56,720 nt of DNA from Nanobdellota archaeon (GCA_030647325.1 JAUSJN010000070.1:1-56720); one strand, 5' to 3'. Positions 17,181 through 45,969 are shown, counted from the first letter of the stretch. A program made the numbers and translations. The notes: generated from the letters alone by a model not told the origin.

Positions 17181-18259
17181 TACTCGGTCAGCTTCTTATC
17201 CGCATCATAATGGACGATGGTAGAATTCCCCTCGCCGGAAACGCTTCTTTCGGTATTGACAAATTTCCCTTCTTTTAATTTGATGATCCTGCGCTGGAAA
17301 CTCTTGTAGCTCATATCTCCGCCTCGTTCGGCATACAAGGCGAATATCTCTCCGATCTTTCTGCCGGTCTGCTCGCGTATTAAATCAAGGATATGTTTCA
17401 TCTCTTCATCCAGCCCTTCCTTGGGCTTGATATGGAAATCATCCACTTTCTTCAGCGCTTCTGCGACATGTGCAGGAGTGATTTTCCGGGAGCTTCGCTC
17501 TTCGGCGAGATTTCCTGCTTCGCGCATCAGATATAATCCCACCCTGACGTCGCTGGTCTCCGCGCATTTTTCCACTAATTCTTTGAACGCCTCTTCGTCC
17601 CAGCAGCTGTCCACAAAGGCATAATCGCGCCGCTGCTGCAAGATACCGGCGATCTCTGCTTCATTATACGGTCGGAAATAGACAAATTCCGGTCCTAGAC
17701 GACTTCTGATACGCTCATCAAGCTCGCCGTAAGTGTCGCGATAATTGGTGATGAGGAGGATGGACTTCCTGTAAATATCTTCCAAGATCGAATACAAAAA
17801 ATCCATGTCTTCTAATTTATCGATCTCATCAAAGATAAAAACCACACTGTTTTTGTTCAATTTTTGTTTTATTAATTCCAGCAGCTCACTGGTCTTTTTG
17901 TTTTGGATGAACTTATATCCTAGATCTTCACAGATTCTGGTGTAGACCTTAAATGTGGTATTCTCCTTCCAGCAATTCACATACATGGAGATCACCTCGC
18001 CGGTCTCTTCTTCCAATTCGCGCAAGACATGTTTGCAGGCGGTTGTTTTTCCGATTCCAGGAGCGCCATACACAAATAAGTTCCTTCCGTTATGCCCTTG
18101 CAGCAATGGCCGGATAGCCGTGGCAAAGCGCATCTGCTCATTTTCCCTAAACTTCAGGATCTTGGGCTGGAAATCGTAATCTAGGATGACCGTATCGCGG
18201 AACACCGTCTCCCCGCTGCGCAACATATCTTTGAATAGCGACATGATTTTAAGAATCAA
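17177..18259 (-). CDS. cdc6: Orc1/Cdc6 replication initiator
   Basis: AAA+ Walker A GAPGIGKT, Walker B VVFIFDEID, C-terminal winged-helix region. Confidence 0.95.
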   Translation of the reverse strand: MILKIMSLFKDMLRSGETVFRDTVILDYDFQPKILKFRENEQMRFATAIRPLLQGHNGRNLFVYGAPGIGKTTACKHVLRELEEETGEVISMYVNCWKENTTFKVYTRICEDLGYKFIQNKKTSELLELIKQKLNKNSVVFIFDEIDKLEDMDFLYSILEDIYRKSILLITNYRDTYGELDERIRSRLGPEFVYFRPYNEAEIAGILQQRRDYAFVDSCWDEEAFKELVEKCAETSDVRVGLYLMREAGNLAEERSSRKITPAHVAEALKKVDDFHIKPKEGLDEEMKHILDLIREQTGRKIGEIFALYAERGGDMSYKSFQRRIIKLKEGKFVNTERSVSGEGNSTIVHYDADKKLTEY

Positions 18260-18292
18260 AAGGTGGTTTATATTGTTTTTGCGTGTAAGGAG

Positions 18293-18545
18293 GTCATAAA
18301 AGTGCGGGAAAGCGTCTCACCTCGCCTTAAAAGGCGAGGCTTGAAAAGAGACGCTTTCTAACCCCCGCACTTTGTGACACAAGAAATACAACAAAGATTG
18401 TATTTCTGTGCAGAAGGACTTTGTCCTTCTTACATAAAAGGGCTGGATACTCCGCACTGAAGTGCGGAGCAAGAAAAGAAACAACGATTTCTTTTCTGCT
18501 CAGAAATGAAGTAGTTTCTTCATTTCTTGAGCTATCCGTCCTTTT
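18293..18545 (+). repeat. hairpin-module locus B upstream of orc1/cdc6: three-tier hairpin, alpha-beta pair (18378-18433), closing stem with hairpin plus a second alpha-beta pair (18469-18531)
   Basis: Arms read directly: GTCATAAAAGTGCGGG/CCCGCACTTTGTGAC; AAAGCGTCTC/GAGACGCTTT; CCTCGCC/GGCGAGG; CAC[A]AGAAATACA/TGTATTTCTGTG; GC[A]AGAAAAGAAA/TTTCTTTTCTGC; CTCAGAAATGAAG/CTTCATTTCT[T]GAG. Confidence 0.8.
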
Positions 18546-18602
18546 AATGTATAAAGATACTACTGCACTTTCATAAAACTTAAAAGCTCTTTTCATAAAA
18601 AT

Positions 18603-19313
18603 ATGGTTATGAAGGTTAAATCAGCAATTTTTGTTACCGCGCTTGTAGCTATGATACTAGTCCTTACTTCCTGCTCCTTCATTACCGGAGGAGCAACAGC
18701 TGGTGATGCCTGCAGCCCTTTAGAAGGCAGCGCTAAAGATAATTGTTATTTTGAATCTCAACAGTGCAGCAAGGTCAAGAATACCCAATTCCGGGATTCC
18801 TGTGTTGCTGAGTTAGCCAAGCAAAAAGATGACATAAAAGTATGTGATCTTATCGTTACCGGTAAGACTATGGGATTCTGCCAGCAGCAGATAGCGGTGC
18901 AGCAGGATAACTTTGAGCTATGTAAGGAGATAGGCGACGAATCATGGCAGGATACTTGTTATCATAAAATAGCTACGGCCAGGAATGACGTCGATAAATG
19001 CTCTTATATCACTGACTTTGATCTGAATCTGAACTGTGTCAAGAAAGTGGCGATAGCGACTCATGATGTTGAATTATGCGATCGGCTAAGCAAGCAGAAC
19101 AAAGCGGAATGTCTTTTTAAGATAGCCACAGAAACTCTTGATTCTGCGGTCTGCGCCGGGTTTACTGATGATAAATTGAATGCCGCTTCCTGTTATCTGA
19201 AGGTCGCTAAATTGAGTGATAATAAGGCAATCTGTAATAAGATCAGCATAAAAGATATCAAGGATACCTGTATCGCTTATTTTAATCAGAAAACAGCGGC
19301 ATTGTCTTCTTAG
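18603..19313 (+). CDS. Cys-rich repeat lipoprotein (236 aa)
   Basis: Lipobox-like LVLTSC, then about 8 repeats of a roughly 25-aa C-x-D-x-C-type unit (...D.C....A......C..I...). Confidence 0.7.
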   Translation: MVMKVKSAIFVTALVAMILVLTSCSFITGGATAGDACSPLEGSAKDNCYFESQQCSKVKNTQFRDSCVAELAKQKDDIKVCDLIVTGKTMGFCQQQIAVQQDNFELCKEIGDESWQDTCYHKIATARNDVDKCSYITDFDLNLNCVKKVAIATHDVELCDRLSKQNKAECLFKIATETLDSAVCAGFTDDKLNAASCYLKVAKLSDNKAICNKISIKDIKDTCIAYFNQKTAALSS

Positions 19314-19373
19314 GTTATGAAAGACGGAAAAGTCAATTGCGTTCTTCACGGAAGCTTTAGAAAAAATTTTGAT

Positions 19374-19715
19374 TTAAAAAAAGGGGAAATCAATTTTGCG
19401 ATAACCAACCCTTATTGAGCCAGCTCTAAATGGTGTAACGCCAACGCCCAGGGTTTCATAGATGTAGTCTCTTGCATTGTAAAGTTTTTCTCTATCTTCT
19501 CCTATAAGAACAGCACTAAGACCTTTTTTTGTTTCCGGATCAATACCCTTACTTCGTAGGTATGATGGAAAAAATGACATTAATCCAGCTTCACTAAACT
19601 GTGATTCTCTATATTCAATCTCACAATCATATTGCCAAGCAATGTATTCTGCATTAATATAAAGTTCCTTGTTACATACAGAATATAAAACAACTGTTTC
19701 GGTATTTGGTTCCAC
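19374..19715 (-). CDS. hypothetical protein (113 aa if GTG 19715 is the start)
   Basis: The track ORF 19374-19859 overlaps rpl37e out of frame. Only the part downstream of the rpl37e stop is plausible; the start is uncertain (GTG 19715, or an internal ATG). Confidence 0.35.
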   Translation of the reverse strand: MEPNTETVVLYSVCNKELYINAEYIAWQYDCEIEYRESQFSEAGLMSFFPSYLRSKGIDPETKKGLSAVLIGEDREKLYNARDYIYETLGVGVTPFRAGSIRVGYRKIDFPFF

Positions 19716-19716
19716 T

Positions 19717-19893
19717 TTAATTTCCAGAAGCTTTCTTATTCCACTTGTACGTTCGCATGGTAGCGGTCTGTCCGTATCCGCAGGAAGCGCACTTTTTCTT
19801 GATCTTGTGAAATGAAGGTTTTCCGCATCGTCTGCAGCGAAGGTGGTTTCTCTTCCCACTCTTCTTACCCATGCTGGCTGTTCCTTTTGACAT
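19717..19893 (-). CDS. rpl37e: 50S ribosomal protein L37e
   Basis: My translation: [58 protein letters not shown], with a C4 zinc ribbon. Directly downstream of the Sm gene, a conserved archaeal Sm-L37e pair. 58 aa, so missing from the ORF track. Confidence 0.9.
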
Positions 19894-19911
19894 AGTTCTT
19901 AACTCCTAATT

Positions 19912-20139
19912 TTATGCTGGAGAAATGATAGTGATAGTATCCCCGCGGATGAATACGGTGCCTACTTTTCTTTTTAATTCTCCGCTTTCGTATTCTTCTG
20001 CATCCTCTAAAACGGTATTGATATGAATATCAAAAGCTCGTAATCTTCCGGTGAAATGGTGACCGTTCTTGAGAACTACCATAACTGTTTTATTCCTTGC
20101 CGCGTTCAGCGTATCTAAAGGTCTTGATCCTTCTTCCAT
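19912..20139 (-). CDS. Sm-like archaeal protein (SmAP/LSm)
   Basis: Sm1/Sm2 motifs: VVLKNGHHFTGRLRAFDIHINTVLEDAEE ... VFIRGDTI. Confidence 0.9.
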   Translation of the reverse strand: MEEGSRPLDTLNAARNKTVMVVLKNGHHFTGRLRAFDIHINTVLEDAEEYESGELKRKVGTVFIRGDTITIISPA

Positions 20140-20220
20140 GTTTTAATTACACCCCATGTGTTTGGTATTCTAGGAAAGATGATGATATATAAAGGTTTCT
20201 AAAAATTTTATAAATTTTTG

Positions 20221-20441
20221 AAACGCGGAGAATTCCACCACTCTATAGAGTGGTGGTTTGCAAGCAAACCACTTATCAATGTGTGGAATTCTTGCGTGCT
20301 CAAAATTAGGCTGGGCGGTGCATGAAATGAAACGACGATTTCATTTCAGCACAGAAAATTGATAGTTTTCAATTTTCTTGTGAGCGAAGCAAACATGCCA
20401 TCGGTCTATTGACCGATGGTCCGCCCAGTCCTATTTTGACA
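20221..20441 (+). repeat. hairpin-module locus C: EcoRI-site backbone (AGAATTCCAC/GTGGAATTCT junction plus TCAAAATTAGGCTGG/CCAGTCCTATTTTGA stem) with alpha-beta-gamma hairpins nested in the second stem
   Basis: Complementary arms read directly. Backbone shared with 23159-23334. Confidence 0.8.
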
Positions 20442-20526
20442 CTCTGGAAGAGACAACCCCCATCTAGTCTGCGTGATTGTTATTGCTAACAGAAGAATTA
20501 TAAATACAATAGTTATTTTCTAGTGT

Positions 20527-21087
20527 ATGATTAATTTCCAAAAGCTCAGAAAAGATATCCAGGATTATGATTCAGAACGGGAACTTTTGATCAAGCAGAG
20601 CAGGGATGTCCTCAAGCTGAGCAAGCAGATCATCTATGCTGTACACCGGGATGAACTTACCGAAGCGGCTAAACTCATAAAACAGATCGAAGCTGAGAAA
20701 AAGAAACTGGATGCTATAGCCAAGCACAGCCGTAAGATGGGTAGCGAGGGAAGTTACAAAGTCGCCATCCAGGAGTATGCGGAAGCATTATTGTACTATC
20801 ACTTTGTCAAGGACGGAAAATTAGTTGATCTATCCATCGACACCGAACATTTCATCTTGGGATTGGCTGATCTTCCCGGCGAATTAGTCAGGAAAGCAGT
20901 ATTCCTGGCGGGAAAAGGTGAAGTAGAGAAAGTCATCAAGATCAAAGATGAAGTTGATACTATTTACGGAGAATTATTGAAATTTGATTTCCGCGACAAT
21001 GAAGTACGAAGAAAATTTGATTCTATCAAATATGATCTGCGGAAATTAGAAGATTTAGTGTTGGATCTGAAGTTGAAAGGAAGATAG
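20527..21087 (+). CDS. translin-family protein
   Basis: All-helical 186 aa. AIQEYAEALLYYHF and LGLADLPGELVR resemble translin/TRAX family motifs. Confidence 0.7.
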   Translation: MINFQKLRKDIQDYDSERELLIKQSRDVLKLSKQIIYAVHRDELTEAAKLIKQIEAEKKKLDAIAKHSRKMGSEGSYKVAIQEYAEALLYYHFVKDGKLVDLSIDTEHFILGLADLPGELVRKAVFLAGKGEVEKVIKIKDEVDTIYGELLKFDFRDNEVRRKFDSIKYDLRKLEDLVLDLKLKGR

Positions 21088-21105
21088 GCTTATTAAAAAT
21101 TAAGA

Positions 21106-21378
21106 ATGGCGTTTTCACTTTTAATGGATAAAGATGTACAAAGTTTTCTCCTGTTTATGTTTTTTGTCTTTGGATTTATGGTCCTAAATGATAAATATTG
21201 GAAATATAAAACAGGTTGGCGTTATTGGGTAGGCGTGATTTTATGTTCATTAGGGATATCTGGCTTTATTATCGATCTTCGTAATGTTAATTTTATAACC
21301 ATTTTAGCAAGTTTGACCTATATTGTTCCCGGTTCTGCAATTTGGCTTATAAAAGCTGAAAAAATGAAGAAAGGCTGA
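21106..21378 (+). CDS. small membrane protein (90 aa, 3 TM)
   Basis: Hydrophobic segments. Tandem with the next small membrane ORF. Confidence 0.5.
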   Translation: MAFSLLMDKDVQSFLLFMFFVFGFMVLNDKYWKYKTGWRYWVGVILCSLGISGFIIDLRNVNFITILASLTYIVPGSAIWLIKAEKMKKG

Positions 21379-21379
21379 G

Positions 21380-21583
21380 ATGGATACTAAATTACAAATT
21401 TTGAAAGATATCACCATTAGTTATATTTCTGGTATAGCGGGAGGTTTAGTTATTCTTTTTTCATTAGATAACAATAATTCCTTACAGCCAAAAGTATTTT
21501 ATTTTTACTTAGTATTAATTTACATCTTACTTTTACTATCAATTCTTCTAATATTTTGGATGTTTAGAAAAAATAAAACTTGA
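21380..21583 (+). CDS. small membrane protein (67 aa, 2 TM)
   Basis: Starts 1 nt after the previous stop. Two hydrophobic helices. Confidence 0.5.
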   Translation: MDTKLQILKDITISYISGIAGGLVILFSLDNNNSLQPKVFYFYLVLIYILLLLSILLIFWMFRKNKT

Positions 21584-21612
21584 CAATTTGCTAGAAGGAA
21601 TGTTGAAAAAAT

Positions 21613-21807
21613 TTACCTTCTCTTTTTCTTAACAACTTTACTAACTGCTTTCTTAACTTTACCCTTTCTTGTTCGCATCTTCGCCAATTTAATCATCTTA
21701 GCTACTTTAGAATGCTTGGGCTTGCCACTAGGGCCGCGGCTTTGGTTAGCATTTTTCTTACTTGCTTTAGAACTTCGTCCCTTCACTACTCTTTTTTTCT
21801 TTGCCAT
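21613..21807 (-). CDS. very basic Lys/Arg-rich 64-aa protein (possible nucleic-acid binding)
   Basis: About half of the residues are K/R. No clear TATA upstream, so it is uncertain. Confidence 0.4.
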   Translation of the reverse strand: MAKKKRVVKGRSSKASKKNANQSRGPSGKPKHSKVAKMIKLAKMRTRKGKVKKAVSKVVKKKRR

Positions 21808-22088
21808 AATATACTGGACTCGGTGAAAAAGTGGCCTGAAATAACGACCAACTCTTGTACGTGCCTATTGGTTTATTTTACAGGTGATCTTTTTCGCCCC
21901 ATACACAAGCGTTATTCAGCACAGGCTGCCCGAGGTGAGTTGTAGTCCAGACACCGAGGTAGTTGTTGAGTACCGAACAGAGGCTGCTATGGTTGCATCC
22001 TTTTCAGGACAACCGAACTGTCCACAAAGAGTAGAATAACTAAGGGGTATAAATAAGTTTGTTACTCCTACGATTAACAACACAAAAT

Positions 22089-22098
22089 CTTATAAAGA
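22089..22098 (+). promoter_or_regulatory. TATA box of the metallophosphoesterase gene
   Basis: CTTATAAAGA, about 26 nt upstream of ATG 22119. Confidence 0.45.
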
Positions 22099-22118
22099 GC
22101 CATTAGTCTTAACATTTC

Positions 22119-22715
22119 ATGAAAATCCTAGCTTTAAGCGATGTACATGGAGATCGGTTTTTCATGCAGGAAATGGCCGAAAAAGGAGCCGAAGAGAAGG
22201 TAGATCTAGTGCTCTTGGCTGGGGACTTAGTCGATGATTATGGAAATGCAGATGGTTTGATCGGTCCATTCAAGGCAAAAGGGCTGGAAGTGGCGATCAT
22301 CCCCGGGAATCATGAAGGCTTGGCAGAAGTACATTTCCTCGCTGAGAAGTATGGTATAAAAAATCTTCACGGGTATGTCATCAAAGTAGGCGATGTAGGG
22401 ATTTTCGGCTGCGGTTATGCCGACGTAGGCATCCATCAACTGTCAGAAAAAGAATTTTTTGAGACTCTTAAGAAAGCGCATGATTCACTGAAAGATGTTA
22501 AAAAGAAATTGATGGTCACTCACGTGCAGCCTAGTGAAAGCATACTTGGTTTAGGAATATTTCCTGGCAGTATAGGCGTGCGAAGAGCTATTGAAGAATT
22601 TAAACCGGATGTGCATATCTGCGGGCACATCCATGAGACGCATGGCATCGAAGAGATGATCGGTTCTACCCGGGTCATCAATGTGGGAAAAACTGGAAAA
22701 ATAATCGAGTTGTGA
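22119..22715 (+). CDS. calcineurin-like metallophosphoesterase
   Basis: SDVHGD, GDLVD, GNHE and GHIH motifs. TATA-like box at 22089-22098. Confidence 0.85.
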   Translation: MKILALSDVHGDRFFMQEMAEKGAEEKVDLVLLAGDLVDDYGNADGLIGPFKAKGLEVAIIPGNHEGLAEVHFLAEKYGIKNLHGYVIKVGDVGIFGCGYADVGIHQLSEKEFFETLKKAHDSLKDVKKKLMVTHVQPSESILGLGIFPGSIGVRRAIEEFKPDVHICGHIHETHGIEEMIGSTRVINVGKTGKIIEL

Positions 22716-23167
22716 ACATGTTACTAAAAACTATCGCCAGAGATTTCGCTCATCAGCATAAAATTGAACTTAATACCAGAAGAAATAGCTTAATTGGCAG
22801 AAAGGGAAGGTTAGTAGTAGGTTATTTGGAGAACAGTTTGAGACAAAAAGTATTTGTCAATAAATCATTTCCTCCTCTCGATGGCATTTATGAGAGCAGG
22901 ATAATTATCGATGATGATGGACAAAACCCGGTCTTGAAAATGAACATTCTGTACGGTTGTTTGGAAGATTACATCACTCAATTACACAAAGTTAAGACTG
23001 ATCTTTGCAAGGATATACATGGAATATTGATTGATTCTTATCTTGATCTAGAAAAATACCCTCAGCTTCCGGAAAATATCTTGCAAGAGCAATTGCCTAT
23101 CAGTATTCCTGACCATGTGGAGGATCTGCATGAACTACTTTGGAGTTTTTATCCTTACAAACGCTGA
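22712..23167 (+). CDS. hypothetical protein (151 aa)
   Basis: 4-nt overlap with the phosphoesterase gene. Its last codons and stop lie inside repeat element D. Confidence 0.55.
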   Translation: MNMLLKTIARDFAHQHKIELNTRRNSLIGRKGRLVVGYLENSLRQKVFVNKSFPPLDGIYESRIIIDDDGQNPVLKMNILYGCLEDYITQLHKVKTDLCKDIHGILIDSYLDLEKYPQLPENILQEQLPISIPDHVEDLHELLWSFYPYKR

Positions 23168-23334
23168 GAATTCCATCTATTGAATGGTGATTTGCTCCCA
23201 AACCGCTTATTAATTTGTGGAATTCTTGCGCATGAAAATAAACAACGATTTATTTTCAGCGCAGAAATACGATATTTTTCGTATTTCTTGCGTGCTCAAA
23301 ATTAGGCTGGACATTCGCCAGTCCTATTTTGACA
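23159..23334 (+). repeat. hairpin-module locus D: same backbone as C, with the alpha-beta pair (23228-23291) between the two backbone domains
   Basis: TGCTCAAAATTAGGCTGG and CCAGTCCTATTTTGACA are identical to locus C. The first domain is roughly 80 percent identical by eye. Confidence 0.8.
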
Positions 23335-23371
23335 TAAAAATATATTTAAACTGAAGTGCTTTAGAAGCGAT

Positions 23372-23500
23372 ATGCTCACCAACTGCCCGGAATGCCGTAA
23401 ACCATTGCACGAAGGCCAGCATCGGTATGCTGATGGATTGTTTAAGGTACAATATTGCAAGAAGTGCGGCTTTAGGAAGGAAACTCCTTTACAAGAATAA
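23372..23500 (+). CDS. 42-aa zinc-ribbon peptide (CxxC...CxxC), tentative
   Basis: My translation: MLTNCPECRKPLHEGQHRYADGLFKVQYCKKCGFRKETPLQE. Below the ORF-track cutoff. Confidence 0.35.
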   Translation: MLTNCPECRKPLHEGQHRYADGLFKVQYCKKCGFRKETPLQE

Positions 23501-23501
23501 A

Positions 23502-23912
23502 TTAATCAAGTTTCCGCAGAACTTTTTCTTTGAATAATATTTGCGTACGCTTTTCTATATCATCGCTTCCTTCCAAAGGCATTGAGTCTGATAAGTAAAT
23601 ACTAGATTGGGACCATTCATCTATCATCTGGCTGATAAATCCGTGATATTCCTTTGCCCTGTCTTTATATAAATCATGGCTTGGGTTTTTACAGTATTTT
23701 TCAAATCTTTGTTCAAGAATTTCGGGAATACTCTGCCAGATCGCCATGGTTATATCATCCTCGCAGAAGATATGGGAGAAATGTTCTAAATTTTTAAAGG
23801 CATATCTTTGAGCTTTTTCGTCAACTACCAGCACTCCGACAGGAATAAGATCTTTACGTGAATCGGTTAAGTCCGAACAGTATAAAGCAAGAGCGTAGCG
23901 CATTTCCATCAA
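23502..23912 (-). CDS. DUF3037-like protein (136 aa)
   Basis: N-terminal RYALALYCSDLTDSRKDLIPVGVLVV resembles the DUF3037 signature (Y..LRY.PD..RGE..NVGVV). Confidence 0.45.
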   Translation of the reverse strand: MMEMRYALALYCSDLTDSRKDLIPVGVLVVDEKAQRYAFKNLEHFSHIFCEDDITMAIWQSIPEILEQRFEKYCKNPSHDLYKDRAKEYHGFISQMIDEWSQSSIYLSDSMPLEGSDDIEKRTQILFKEKVLRKLD

Positions 23913-26442: not shown

Positions 26443-26546
26443 TGAGCCTGCAGGGATTCGAACCCCGATATCGATTTTGGACACCTTTATGTTGCCCAAA
26501 TTAACCGGTCCGAAGCCGATTGTGCTATCCGTTACACCACAGGCCC
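26443..26546 (-). tRNA. tRNA-Arg(UCG) with an insertion of about 31 nt after the anticodon arm (variable-loop region)
   Basis: Minus-strand read: GGGCCTG TG GTGT-AACGGATA-GCAC A ATCGG-CTTCGGA-CCGGT, then 36 nt (a normal variable loop is 5 nt), then CGGGG-TTCGAAT-CCCTG CAGGCTC A. Confidence 0.75.
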
Positions 26547-45672: not shown

Positions 45673-45754
45673 ATCTTTCTTTTTAAGGAAGAGAACATAA
45701 TAAAGTTATGTGAGTATTGGAGAGTGGGAAACTTTGTAATTTTAAAATTCTTTT

Positions 45755-45819
45755 TGCGCCGATGCAAGAAAACTATAAGTTTTCTGCACAGAAATATGAT
45801 ATTCTTCATATTTCTTGTG
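45755..45819 (+). repeat. hairpin-module locus F: alpha-beta pair
   Basis: GC[A]AGAAAAC-tataa-GTTTTCTGC and CAC-AGAAATATGA-tattct-TCATATTTCT[T]GTG. Confidence 0.75.
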
Positions 45820-45969
45820 GCGGTGCGACGGTTGCTACGCAACCTACACGACAGCCCGTAGGGCGCATCCCCAGTCGTGCCGCACGCCATGGCGCAAGAC
45901 AAACCGGGGGACGTCCCTTACGGGGTGGTTTGTAGGACGAAGTCCGTCTTGCCGCCATGATGGCGTGCA
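45820..45969 (+). other. 150-nt strongly GC-rich, helix-dense non-coding segment (candidate structured RNA; strand unknown)
   Basis: Hairpins GGTTGC-tac-GCAACC, CACGAC...GTCGTG around GCCC-gta-GGGC, and GGAC-gaa-GTCC. Long-range helix GCACGCCAT-GGCG-CAAGAC (45882-45900) with GTCTTG-CCGCC-atg-ATGGCGTGC (45946-45968). Confidence 0.5.

Follow-up and report, generated by a model that had tools for sequence, protein, structure and literature searches.

Enterobacteria carry mosaics of short extragenic imperfect palindromes (repetitive extragenic palindromes, REP, and bacterial interspersed mosaic elements, BIME) together with REP-associated tyrosine transposases (RAYT), and the insertion sequences (IS) IS1397 and ISKpn1 insert preferentially into the loops of REP palindromes. 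Plants possess nested miniature transposable elements with inverted repeats (MITEs) of the Stowaway and Tourist types, which are known for self-insertion, and the BOX elements of Streptococcus pneumoniae are modular. DPANN archaea are generally described as having small, streamlined genomes. Prokaryotic MITEs are exemplified by the Correia element of Neisseria, the pneumococcal RUP and the SM elements of Sulfolobus (PMC10969869); the archaeal MITEs covered by the same review are from Sulfolobus, Halobacterium, Haloquadratum, Desulfurococcus and few others, and nesting is not mentioned there. The palindrome-associated transposable elements (PATEs) of Haloquadratum are non-autonomous elements derived from IS200/IS605 (PMC3119063), and the Rickettsia palindromic elements (RPEs) insert in frame within genes and encode peptide (PMC10969869). 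Here we analyze a stretch of 56,720 nt from a Nanobdellota archaeon (GCA_030647325.1 JAUSJN010000070.1:1-56720), hereafter the window, and in particular a hairpin-rich repeat, locus D, at the end of one of its genes.

Locus D very probably represents an old, non-coding mobile backbone at a gene end, which was later invaded by a 60-bp mini-transposon consisting of a pair of hairpins (the alpha-beta module); the enzymology that we propose for both is inferred. Two kinds of non-autonomous mobile DNA are found, one nested in the other, and each layer is present in some copies and genomes and absent from others. Full-text searching of the literature yielded no description of these elements, and the hairpin repeats, which nest within one another, apparently form a hitherto undescribed family in uncultured archaea of groundwater and soil.

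Results

Architecture of locus D and its relation to locus C

The composite element of locus D occupies positions 23162-23334 on the plus strand and consists of a decayed backbone copy with one nested alpha-beta module; its length is about 173-176 nt, depending on the left boundary. It is preceded by the triplet AAA (23159-23161), a Lys codon and probably a pre-existing target, which forms part of the left-flank motif TTNAAA. Backbone domain 1 (23162-23230) folds, according to the prediction, into an outer stem GAGAATTCCA...TGGAATTCTT around two degraded inner hairpins, and it contains the codon CGC (Arg, 23162-23164) and a TGA (23165-23167). Its last two nucleotides (23229-23230) are the left CG of a 2-bp target-site duplication, the right CG of which lies at 23291-23292; empty backbones, i.e. 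locus C and 28 other copies, read CTTGCGTGCTC with CG only once. Between the two lies the module (23231-23290, nhmmer score 59 bits), 60 bp with terminal inverted repeats (TIRs) CATGAAA...TTTCTTG, composed of an alpha hairpin (23231-23259, loop CAACGA) and a beta hairpin (23262-23290, loop TATTTT). Backbone domain 2 (23293-23334) is an imperfect hairpin, TGCTCAAAATTAGGCTGG / CCAGTCCTATTTTGACA, with the loop ACATTCG and the element end ...TTTTGACA. The predicted fold of the whole element has a free energy of -66 kcal/mol (z = -8.9 versus shuffled sequence). The junction from domain 1 to alpha is seen again in a second assembly, the Logan contig L030, which encodes the identical protein.

Locus C (20221-20441, plus strand) represents the common backbone form with a further hairpin, 'gamma', plus one alpha-beta module, the same architecture as in the loci L070 and L074 from other genomes. 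Its module (20321-20380) is flanked by TG at 20319-20320 and 20381-20382, and empty copies read GGCGGTGAGCGAAGC at this point; the predicted fold reaches -105 kcal/mol (z = -11.8 versus shuffled sequence). Within the window, the 18-mer TGCTCAAAATTAGGCTGG occurs only at 20297-20314 and 23293-23310, and the 17-mer CCAGTCCTATTTTGACA only at 20425-20441 and 23318-23334; the chance expectation for such matches of the domain 2 arms is about 0.1, even with 3 mismatches allowed. The string GTGGAATTCTTGCG is shared as well (20283-20296 in C, 23217-23230 in D), and domain 1 of D (23159-23230) is 82% identical to that of C. A 62-nt stretch, 23231-23292, splits the two domains of D, and its excision yields GTGGAATTCTTGCG|TGCTCAAAATTAGG, exactly the junction of C. 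In these respects, namely the shared backbone and its coordinates, both long matches, the ACATTCG loop and the junction restored on excision, the initial annotation proved accurate.

Other statements have to be revised. In place of the ACATTCG loop of D, domain 2 of C holds 110 nt (20315-20424), which had been regarded as an alpha-beta-gamma insert. However, only 20321-20382, the 60-nt module plus TG (62 nt), is extra with respect to the commonest backbone form; the part GCGGT...gamma...CCGC belongs to that form. The annotation had also noticed an 8-bp direct repeat at the edges of the module in D, and TTCTTGCG is indeed present at 23223-23230 and 23285-23292, but not as an 8-bp target duplication, as only CG is duplicated. 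The preceding TTCTTG belongs to a backbone stem on the left (GGAATTCTTG) and to the module's own terminal repeat on the right (TTTCWTG in all copies). At other copies of the same insertion site the shared string is shorter, i.e. CTTGCG in L048 and TGCG in L010.

The alpha-beta module as a transposon-like unit

With a profile built from six modules, about 31 copies of full length were found in the element-bearing loci fetched from relatives and metagenomes, 0.6 Mb in total. The module is 60 bp long and composed of two perfectly Watson-Crick-paired hairpins, with the ends CAWGAAA...TTTCWTG in all 20 distinct modules, which show no variation in the GAAA/TTTC runs or in the terminal pairs C1-G29 and C32-G60. 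Modules occur in both orientations, the inverted ones showing the loops as reverse complements (GAAAACTATC, AATCGTTGTT). At 15 out of 15 distinct insertion sites the two flanking nucleotides are identical (TG/CA at nine sites, CG at two, AG/CT at two, GA and TA at one each), with a chance of agreement of at most about 1 in 16 per site, and at six of the sites (c, c', d, e, beta loop and delta linker) the dinucleotide is single in empty copies. These identical dinucleotides are the signature of a target-site duplication.

Within backbone copies the module is found at seven or more different sites. Site c (CTTGCG^TGCTC, duplicating CG) is occupied in D, L048, L010, L080, L081, L069, L031 and L042, and site c' (CTTGCGTG^CTCAAAA, duplicating TG) by inverted modules in L050, L044 and L065; the two sites are 2 nt apart, yet the duplicated dinucleotides differ. 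TG is also duplicated at site d (GGCGGTG^AGCGAAG; C, L070, L074, L065) and at site e inside gamma (AACATG^CTACC; L031, L042). The linker of another module type, 'delta', was struck by two different modules in L069 (GGGACG^CCAATG, CG), and the loop of another module's beta hairpin was entered in L069, L031 and L042 (GATA^TTC, TA). Sites outside the backbone, with AG, CA, CT, GA or TG, are known from window positions 18470 and 45765 and from L011, L021, L049, L055, L078 and L044. The sole exception to the dinucleotide rule is a module in L075 with CG on the left and TG on the right, where the 5' arm of domain 2 is deleted; it is a recombinant of site-c and site-e modules that lost the intervening DNA. 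Alignment of backbone copies with and without the module shows that it is neither universal nor placed at one homologous position. Independent entry into backbone copies, as initially proposed, is thus borne out: 28 of 44 copies are without it, and the others carry it at various sites and in both orientations, each time with a 2-bp duplication.

Among the 20 distinct modules, 99.1% of the stem cells in the alignment are standard pairs (Watson-Crick or G-U), and all but one of these are Watson-Crick. Compensatory double changes affect 13 of 22 pairs (83 cells); a one-sided change occurs in one cell only, which is the sole G-U among 440 cells. Shuffle and slide controls all gave far lower pairing than observed in the module stems. 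The loops ACAACGAT and GATAGTTTTC are conserved. The backbone also exhibits compensated changes, e.g. GAGAATTCC/GGAATTCTT, GAGTATTCC/GGAATACTT and GAGTATACC/GGTATACTG, and in addition conserved G.T mismatches. Because wobble pairs are nearly absent and there is no orientation bias, the hairpins seem to matter as DNA to a mobilising machinery and not as RNA; a reading at the RNA level was rejected on these grounds.

Some further observations concern the module and its relatives. Inside the window, a module at 18470-18529 (plus strand) lies in a different host repeat, with AG at 18468-18469 and 18530-18531, and the same composite recurs in L069 (8718-8777). The surrounding region 18300-18560 is a composite hairpin array whose host repeat, GGCTGGATA-CTCCGCACTGAAGTGCGGAG...CTATCCGTCC, is accompanied by the same module in L069; a beta-like hairpin is located at 18380-18415, and the open reading frames (ORFs) called at 18317-18596 are probably spurious. 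A shorter relative of 53 nt (45765-45817, plus strand), with TG at 45763-45764 and 45818-45819, adjoins GC-rich hairpins, which continue as a run after it (region 45717-45960); a 72-aa ORF at 45717-45935 is probably a repeat artefact. The delta type, CAGTGAAAcaaagaTTTCACTG-GGACGC-CAATGAAGtcgttgCTTCATTG, sits in the first inner hairpin loop of domain 1 in L010, L035, L043, L044, L069 and L080, and in L031 and L042 the 3' arm of domain 1 is interrupted at GTGGAA^TACTTGCG by yet another pair of hairpins (CTAAAAAATC.../CACAAAAATG...).

The host gene and its empty orthologous sites

The gene that ends in locus D (22718-23167, plus strand) encodes a protein of 149 aa assigned to no Pfam family; the ATG at 22718 is the more likely start, and the last codon, CGC (Arg), and the TGA stop lie within the inserted element. 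The protein has few homologues, and the orthologs P0002-P0010 (the window protein is P0001) end in ...SFYP[SY] plus 0-4 residues. Synteny is conserved and comprises the genes of LSm, translin, a metallophosphoesterase, the host ORF, a small zinc-ribbon protein and SRP54. SRP54 is about 95% identical, and therefore the compared loci belong to close relatives.

The element is missing from all four distinct orthologous sites (L001, L023, L024 and L027), so that the empty sites in relatives suggested as a check were found for D. The gene ends read ccttac TGA TAAAAATATATTTAAACTGAAG in L001 (86% aa identity), ccttct gaa TAA AAATATATTTAAAC in L027, ccttct gga TAA AATATTTAAAC in L023 and ccctca aaa TAA ATATGTATTTAAAC in L024, compared with ccttac AAA [CGCTGAG...TTTTGACA] TAAAAATATATTTAAACTGAAG in the window, where 173 nt are inserted. 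The orthologs all stop at the TAA that matches 23335-23337, apart from L001, which stops at a TGA directly before it. In D this ancestral stop (plus strand) has been displaced to just 3' of the element, where it is followed by the conserved AAATATATTTAAAC upstream of the next small gene; comparison of the ortholog ends, ...SFYP[SY]x-TAA, thus answered a second suggestion of the initial annotation. The empty site predicted for D, ccttacAAA^TAAAAATAT, aligns colinearly with L024 (ccctcaAAATAA), L027 (ccttctGAATAA) and L001 (ccttacTGATAA). Since the alignment contains no indel if AAA is native, the insert would be 23162-23334 and would supply CGC (Arg) and TGA. Hence, AAA is probably a Lys codon of the gene itself, and 23162 (CGC), not 23159, is the probable start of the mobile part of D; the entire element is an insertion directly before the ancestral TAA. 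The statement that the element provides the last codons and the stop holds for Arg and TGA, but probably not for Lys. The effect on the host gene is probably negligible.

The backbone family

The backbone is a dispersed family and itself an insertion, because empty orthologous sites exist both for D and for L038. For the latter, the empty counterpart L077 reads gctgAAA^AACGCCGAGCG (gctgAAA^AACGCC), with AAA pre-existing, and the filled site reads gctgAAA[CGCGGAG...TTTTGACA]AACGCCGAGCG, with neither duplication nor loss. No target duplication was detected in the L038/L077 pair or in D versus its four orthologs, and no register brings the left and right flanks into agreement. Nor do the ends, AAACGC.../...TTTTGACA, form inverted repeats. 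TTNAAA precedes CGC in 50 of 54 copies, in which AAA could still be element DNA. Copies are intergenic, and their upstream genes are co-oriented in 20 cases and opposed in 19, i.e. there is no orientation bias. It had been suggested that these elements land in gene 3' ends; yet such ends account for 45 of 80 flanks, no real preference, and a stop codon is supplied by D alone among 54 copies.

A scan of GTDB representatives (one genome per species) with the 18-mer returned 13 true copies and 7 chance matches in bacteria. The true copies are located in metagenome-assembled genomes (MAGs), of which two SMAG soil MAGs and three Hainich groundwater bins bear the label Nanoarchaeota or Candidatus Nanoarchaeia and three binchicken MAGs the label 'uncultured Methanosarcinales'. 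The labels conflict for L005-L022 and L027: syntenic MAGs of close relatives with the same elements are Nanoarchaeota or Candidatus Nanoarchaeia for two submitters and 'uncultured Methanosarcinales' for a third. The window is syntenic with L027, which comes from a 'Methanosarcinales' MAG, and its NYN protein is 84% identical to the one encoded by L008 of a 'Nanoarchaeia' MAG; hence, both taxon labels have been given to related organisms.

Metagenomes provided about 50 further copies; when they were scanned with a domain 1 pattern, blind to downstream sequence, 55 loci were found in samples of aquifer, groundwater and soil. Altogether, 44 distinct complete backbone copies of 97-513 nt were parsed from public MAGs and metagenomes, of which 28 contain no module, 12 contain one and 4 contain two to four. 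Bare backbones measure 113-118 nt (L085, L083, L017); in the commonest form (154-160 nt) the domain 2 loop holds GCGGT, the gamma hairpin and CCGC. In the shorter copies (L046, L049, L078, L043, L034), internal sequence has been deleted between short homologies, e.g. TCTATTGA. Furthermore, L053 and L055 represent a related subfamily, which shares domain 1 and has a different domain 2 (GTGTTCAAWAAGA...TCTCTTTTTGACA), and therefore the family is broader than exact-match scans show.

Nesting order and relative age

The backbone of D is an old, decayed copy, since its domain 1 has lost 4 nt and no other domain 1 is more than 82% identical to it. Its module, on the other hand, is 97% identical (58/60) to the module of L048 at the same site of a different backbone subfamily. 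The diverged domain 1 and the near-identical module imply that the module of D is younger than the backbone copy, and most likely it entered this backbone in place. Locus C, by contrast, is a young backbone copy, because its domain 1 is 100% identical to that of L061; its module is identical to that of L074 (60/60). The C element is not present in the LSm-translin spacers of L023, L024 and L002, and no base-by-base empty site was obtained for it, as this spacer is too divergent to align. In relatives, the same spacer bears other long inverted repeats (L024 230-400, e.g. AAAGCGTCGTCGTCTAGGCCAAG...CTTGCGGCCAAGACGACGCTTT; L023 270-380) and looks like a hotspot of hairpin elements.

One backbone insertion with different contents is seen at the orthologous sites of L085 (113 nt, bare) and L074 (217 nt, with gamma and module), the flanks of which are 82-88% identical. 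The same site-c composite is found in five unrelated genomic flanks (L010, L080, L069, L031, L042), and therefore composites keep moving as units. Modules nest inside modules, even within the beta loop, with up to three or four modules per 500 nt. All insertion points lie in predicted loops or linkers of the host element. This could reflect structure-directed targeting, or it could reflect survivorship, as insertions into stems would disable the host element.

Other features of the window

At the gathering threshold, the only Rfam match in the whole window is a tRNA (26443-26546, minus strand, 104 nt, 48.6 bits), which presumably contains an intron; ARAGORN predicted no tRNA in the window. A search of 18200-23600 against Rfam at E <= 5 gave nothing meaningful. 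A block of about 215 nt (21812-22030), located between the gene of the metallophosphoesterase and a small Lys-rich ORF (21613-21807, minus strand), has 97-100% DNA identity across L023, L024, L002 and, in part, L027; the flanking proteins show only 60-95% aa identity. This block is a conserved non-coding element, without Rfam match at E <= 5 and with weak fold z-scores (-1.8, -0.8).

Discussion

A model for the origin of locus D

According to our model, the backbone, a non-coding element with two imperfect hairpin domains, would have inserted 3' of ...AAA, between the last sense codon and the TAA of the host gene, without duplication. The gene would then read through CGC into the TGA inside the element and gain one Arg. 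Later, the alpha-beta module would have entered the CG of the single-stranded linker between the backbone domains and duplicated it, with the outer arms of its two hairpins serving as TIRs (CAWGAAA...TTTCWTG). The module may be moved in trans by a DDE-type transposase that makes 2-nt staggered target cuts. For the backbone, a hairpin-recognising single-strand route of the IS200/IS605 TnpA or RAYT type is suggested, because it has no inverted repeats, causes no duplication and has a 5' motif that resembles its 3' end. Insertions in loops and linkers may be the ones we see since they leave the host hairpins, and hence host mobility, intact.

Several points weigh against this model. No transposase was recognized with Pfam among 20 scanned ORFs of the window, which match housekeeping families, several being without any match. 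An all-against-all blastp comparison of ORFs of at least 150 aa from the 0.6 Mb of loci found syntenic orthologs only and no multi-copy ORF family, and a search of the same loci for long CAWGAAA...TTTCWTG pairs with a 2-bp duplication gave two weak chance candidates only. The duplication of 2 bp is short, and 12 of the 15 dinucleotides are TG, CA or CG, so that the agreement is due in part to target preference. For the left end of the backbone there is an uncertainty of 3 nt, with AAA as either target or element, and an ATA variant of the triplet follows one subfamily, which would fit AAA/ATA as element DNA too. Copies were gathered by exact 18-20-mers, and divergent members are under-sampled. 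The direction of the gamma difference is ambiguous; bare copies, for instance L085, L048 and L010, resemble products of microhomology deletion from the gamma form.

Other candidates were examined as well. Unpaired backbone ends, considered as traces of an autonomous partner, turned out to be truncations, chance matches or members of the related subfamily (L053, L055), and none in the fetched loci lies beside a transposase-like ORF. In viral contigs, the domain 1 pattern had no matches and the domain 2 pattern three chance matches in a phage coding region, and no mobilising enzyme emerged from them. An insertion similar to bulge-helix-bulge introns was rejected, because inspection, though no formal search, revealed no such motif at the junctions and the host backbone is not a conserved RNA gene.

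Alternative explanations

What could the mosaics be, if not the product of module transposition into a mobile backbone? It is conceivable, though on balance unlikely, that one hairpin-specific system moves both layers and that the 2-bp repeat is a crossover or overlap dinucleotide, or the work of another structure-specific enzyme, and not the trace of a staggered DDE cut. Tn4451 and IS607, serine-recombinase transposons, have such a crossover dinucleotide. Structure-specific recognition is suggested by the fact that every unit is a hairpin whose loop is conserved and whose stem covaries; the target dinucleotides are biased to TG/CA/CG, insertion points are hairpin loops and linkers, and no DDE transposase is seen in the window or the fetched loci. 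However, the dinucleotide varies among closely related modules, the duplication always accompanies the module and never the backbone, which suggests two mechanisms, nor was any recombinase detected. Still less probable is an origin of the mosaics by recombination, gene conversion or template-switching during replication among hairpin repeats. Recombination clearly occurs, as the L075 chimera and the deletions across short homologies in the five shorter copies show, and gene conversion could also produce identical modules at the same site of different backbone subfamilies; but neither the exact 2-bp duplications at 15 sites nor the two orientations nor the insertions into non-repeat DNA (L055, L078, L044) are predicted by it.

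That the backbone, modules included or not, should be the gene of a structured non-coding RNA, or a cis-regulatory RNA (terminator, stabiliser), with variable expansion segments is in our view very improbable. The very stable predicted folds of D and C, the compensatory stem changes and the intergenic position, often just after genes, would suit an RNA. Against this stand the absence of the element from orthologous sites of close relatives, its occurrence at unrelated loci without orientation bias relative to genes, the single G-U in 440 cells and the ratio of one one-sided to 83 double changes, the lack of an Rfam match at E <= 5 and lengths from 97 to 513 nt. An assembly artefact, in which repeat-induced chimeric joins made the nested structures, is hardly credible. 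Short-read contigs do often break at these repeats, and L001, L002, L022 and L030 end in or beside one; but the junctions recur across separate assemblies and samples (window and L030; L048 and L057; L013, L072 and L056; L015, L039 and L062), the architectures are internally consistent and the duplications exact.

We thus favour a mobile backbone that was secondarily invaded by the module. A more far-reaching proposal, which we put forward only tentatively, is that the modules, and perhaps the backbone, are substrates of an unrecognised structure-specific transposition system in DPANN-type archaea. It would recognise DNA hairpins, extruded or single-stranded, with the conserved loops ACAACGAT and GATAGTTTTC, integrate them at a stagger of 2 nt where further hairpins have their loops and linkers, and in this way build 'matryoshka' repeats of more than 500 nt.

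Implications and comparison with known systems

DPANN-labelled lineages carry active-looking, tiny non-coding mobile elements that parasitise one another, an unexpected load. The module, with 60 bp, an exact 2-bp duplication and Watson-Crick-only stems, provides a clean minimal substrate for identification of the enzyme and allows one to ask how little DNA a transposon needs; it may be among the smallest prokaryotic mobile units that combine TIRs with a duplication. In practice, the repeats break short-read assemblies, create spurious ORFs and can change gene ends, as in D. Their presence or absence and their nesting order could mark strain or lineage history in groundwater and soil metagenomes.

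The module resembles MITEs in being non-coding and multicopy, in its TIRs, target-site duplication and occurrence in both orientations, and in the presence or absence at individual sites. It differs from them in that it is only 60 bp long and is made up of nothing but a pair of perfect hairpins, whose loops are conserved and whose stems covary, in that a variable 2-bp sequence and not TA is duplicated, in that it mostly targets other repeats, and in that no cognate IS was found in the window or the 0.6 Mb of loci; its lineage, known from DPANN-labelled MAGs, is not among the MITE-bearing archaea of the review (PMC10969869). The backbone, in turn, recalls PATEs: it lacks TIRs and, in two filled/empty comparisons, a target duplication, it has imperfect hairpins near both ends, and the putative target motif TTNAAA immediately 5' of its left end resembles its 3' end TTTTGACA. 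Unlike in PATEs, the left hairpin begins 0-3 nt from the boundary, and no full-length IS with tnpA or tnpB and matching ends occurs in the fetched loci. With RPEs the element of locus D shares a palindromic repeat that gives codons to a host ORF; here, however, only one of 54 copies touches a gene, to which it gives one codon and a stop.

Like nested plant MITEs and BOX elements, the repeats are layered or modular, and nesting exposes target duplication and preference; the domain of life, the size class and the sequence are different, and here a module may lie inside another module's loop. The hairpin mosaics, and the entry of a second mobile element into palindrome loops, recall REP/BIME. In contrast to these, the aligned copies have no GTAG-type head, no RAYT gene was seen in the incomplete genomes, and the units carry a duplication, which REPs are without. 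As compared with IS1397-type insertion, finally, the invader is not a full IS but a tiny non-autonomous pair of hairpins, and the hosts are archaea.

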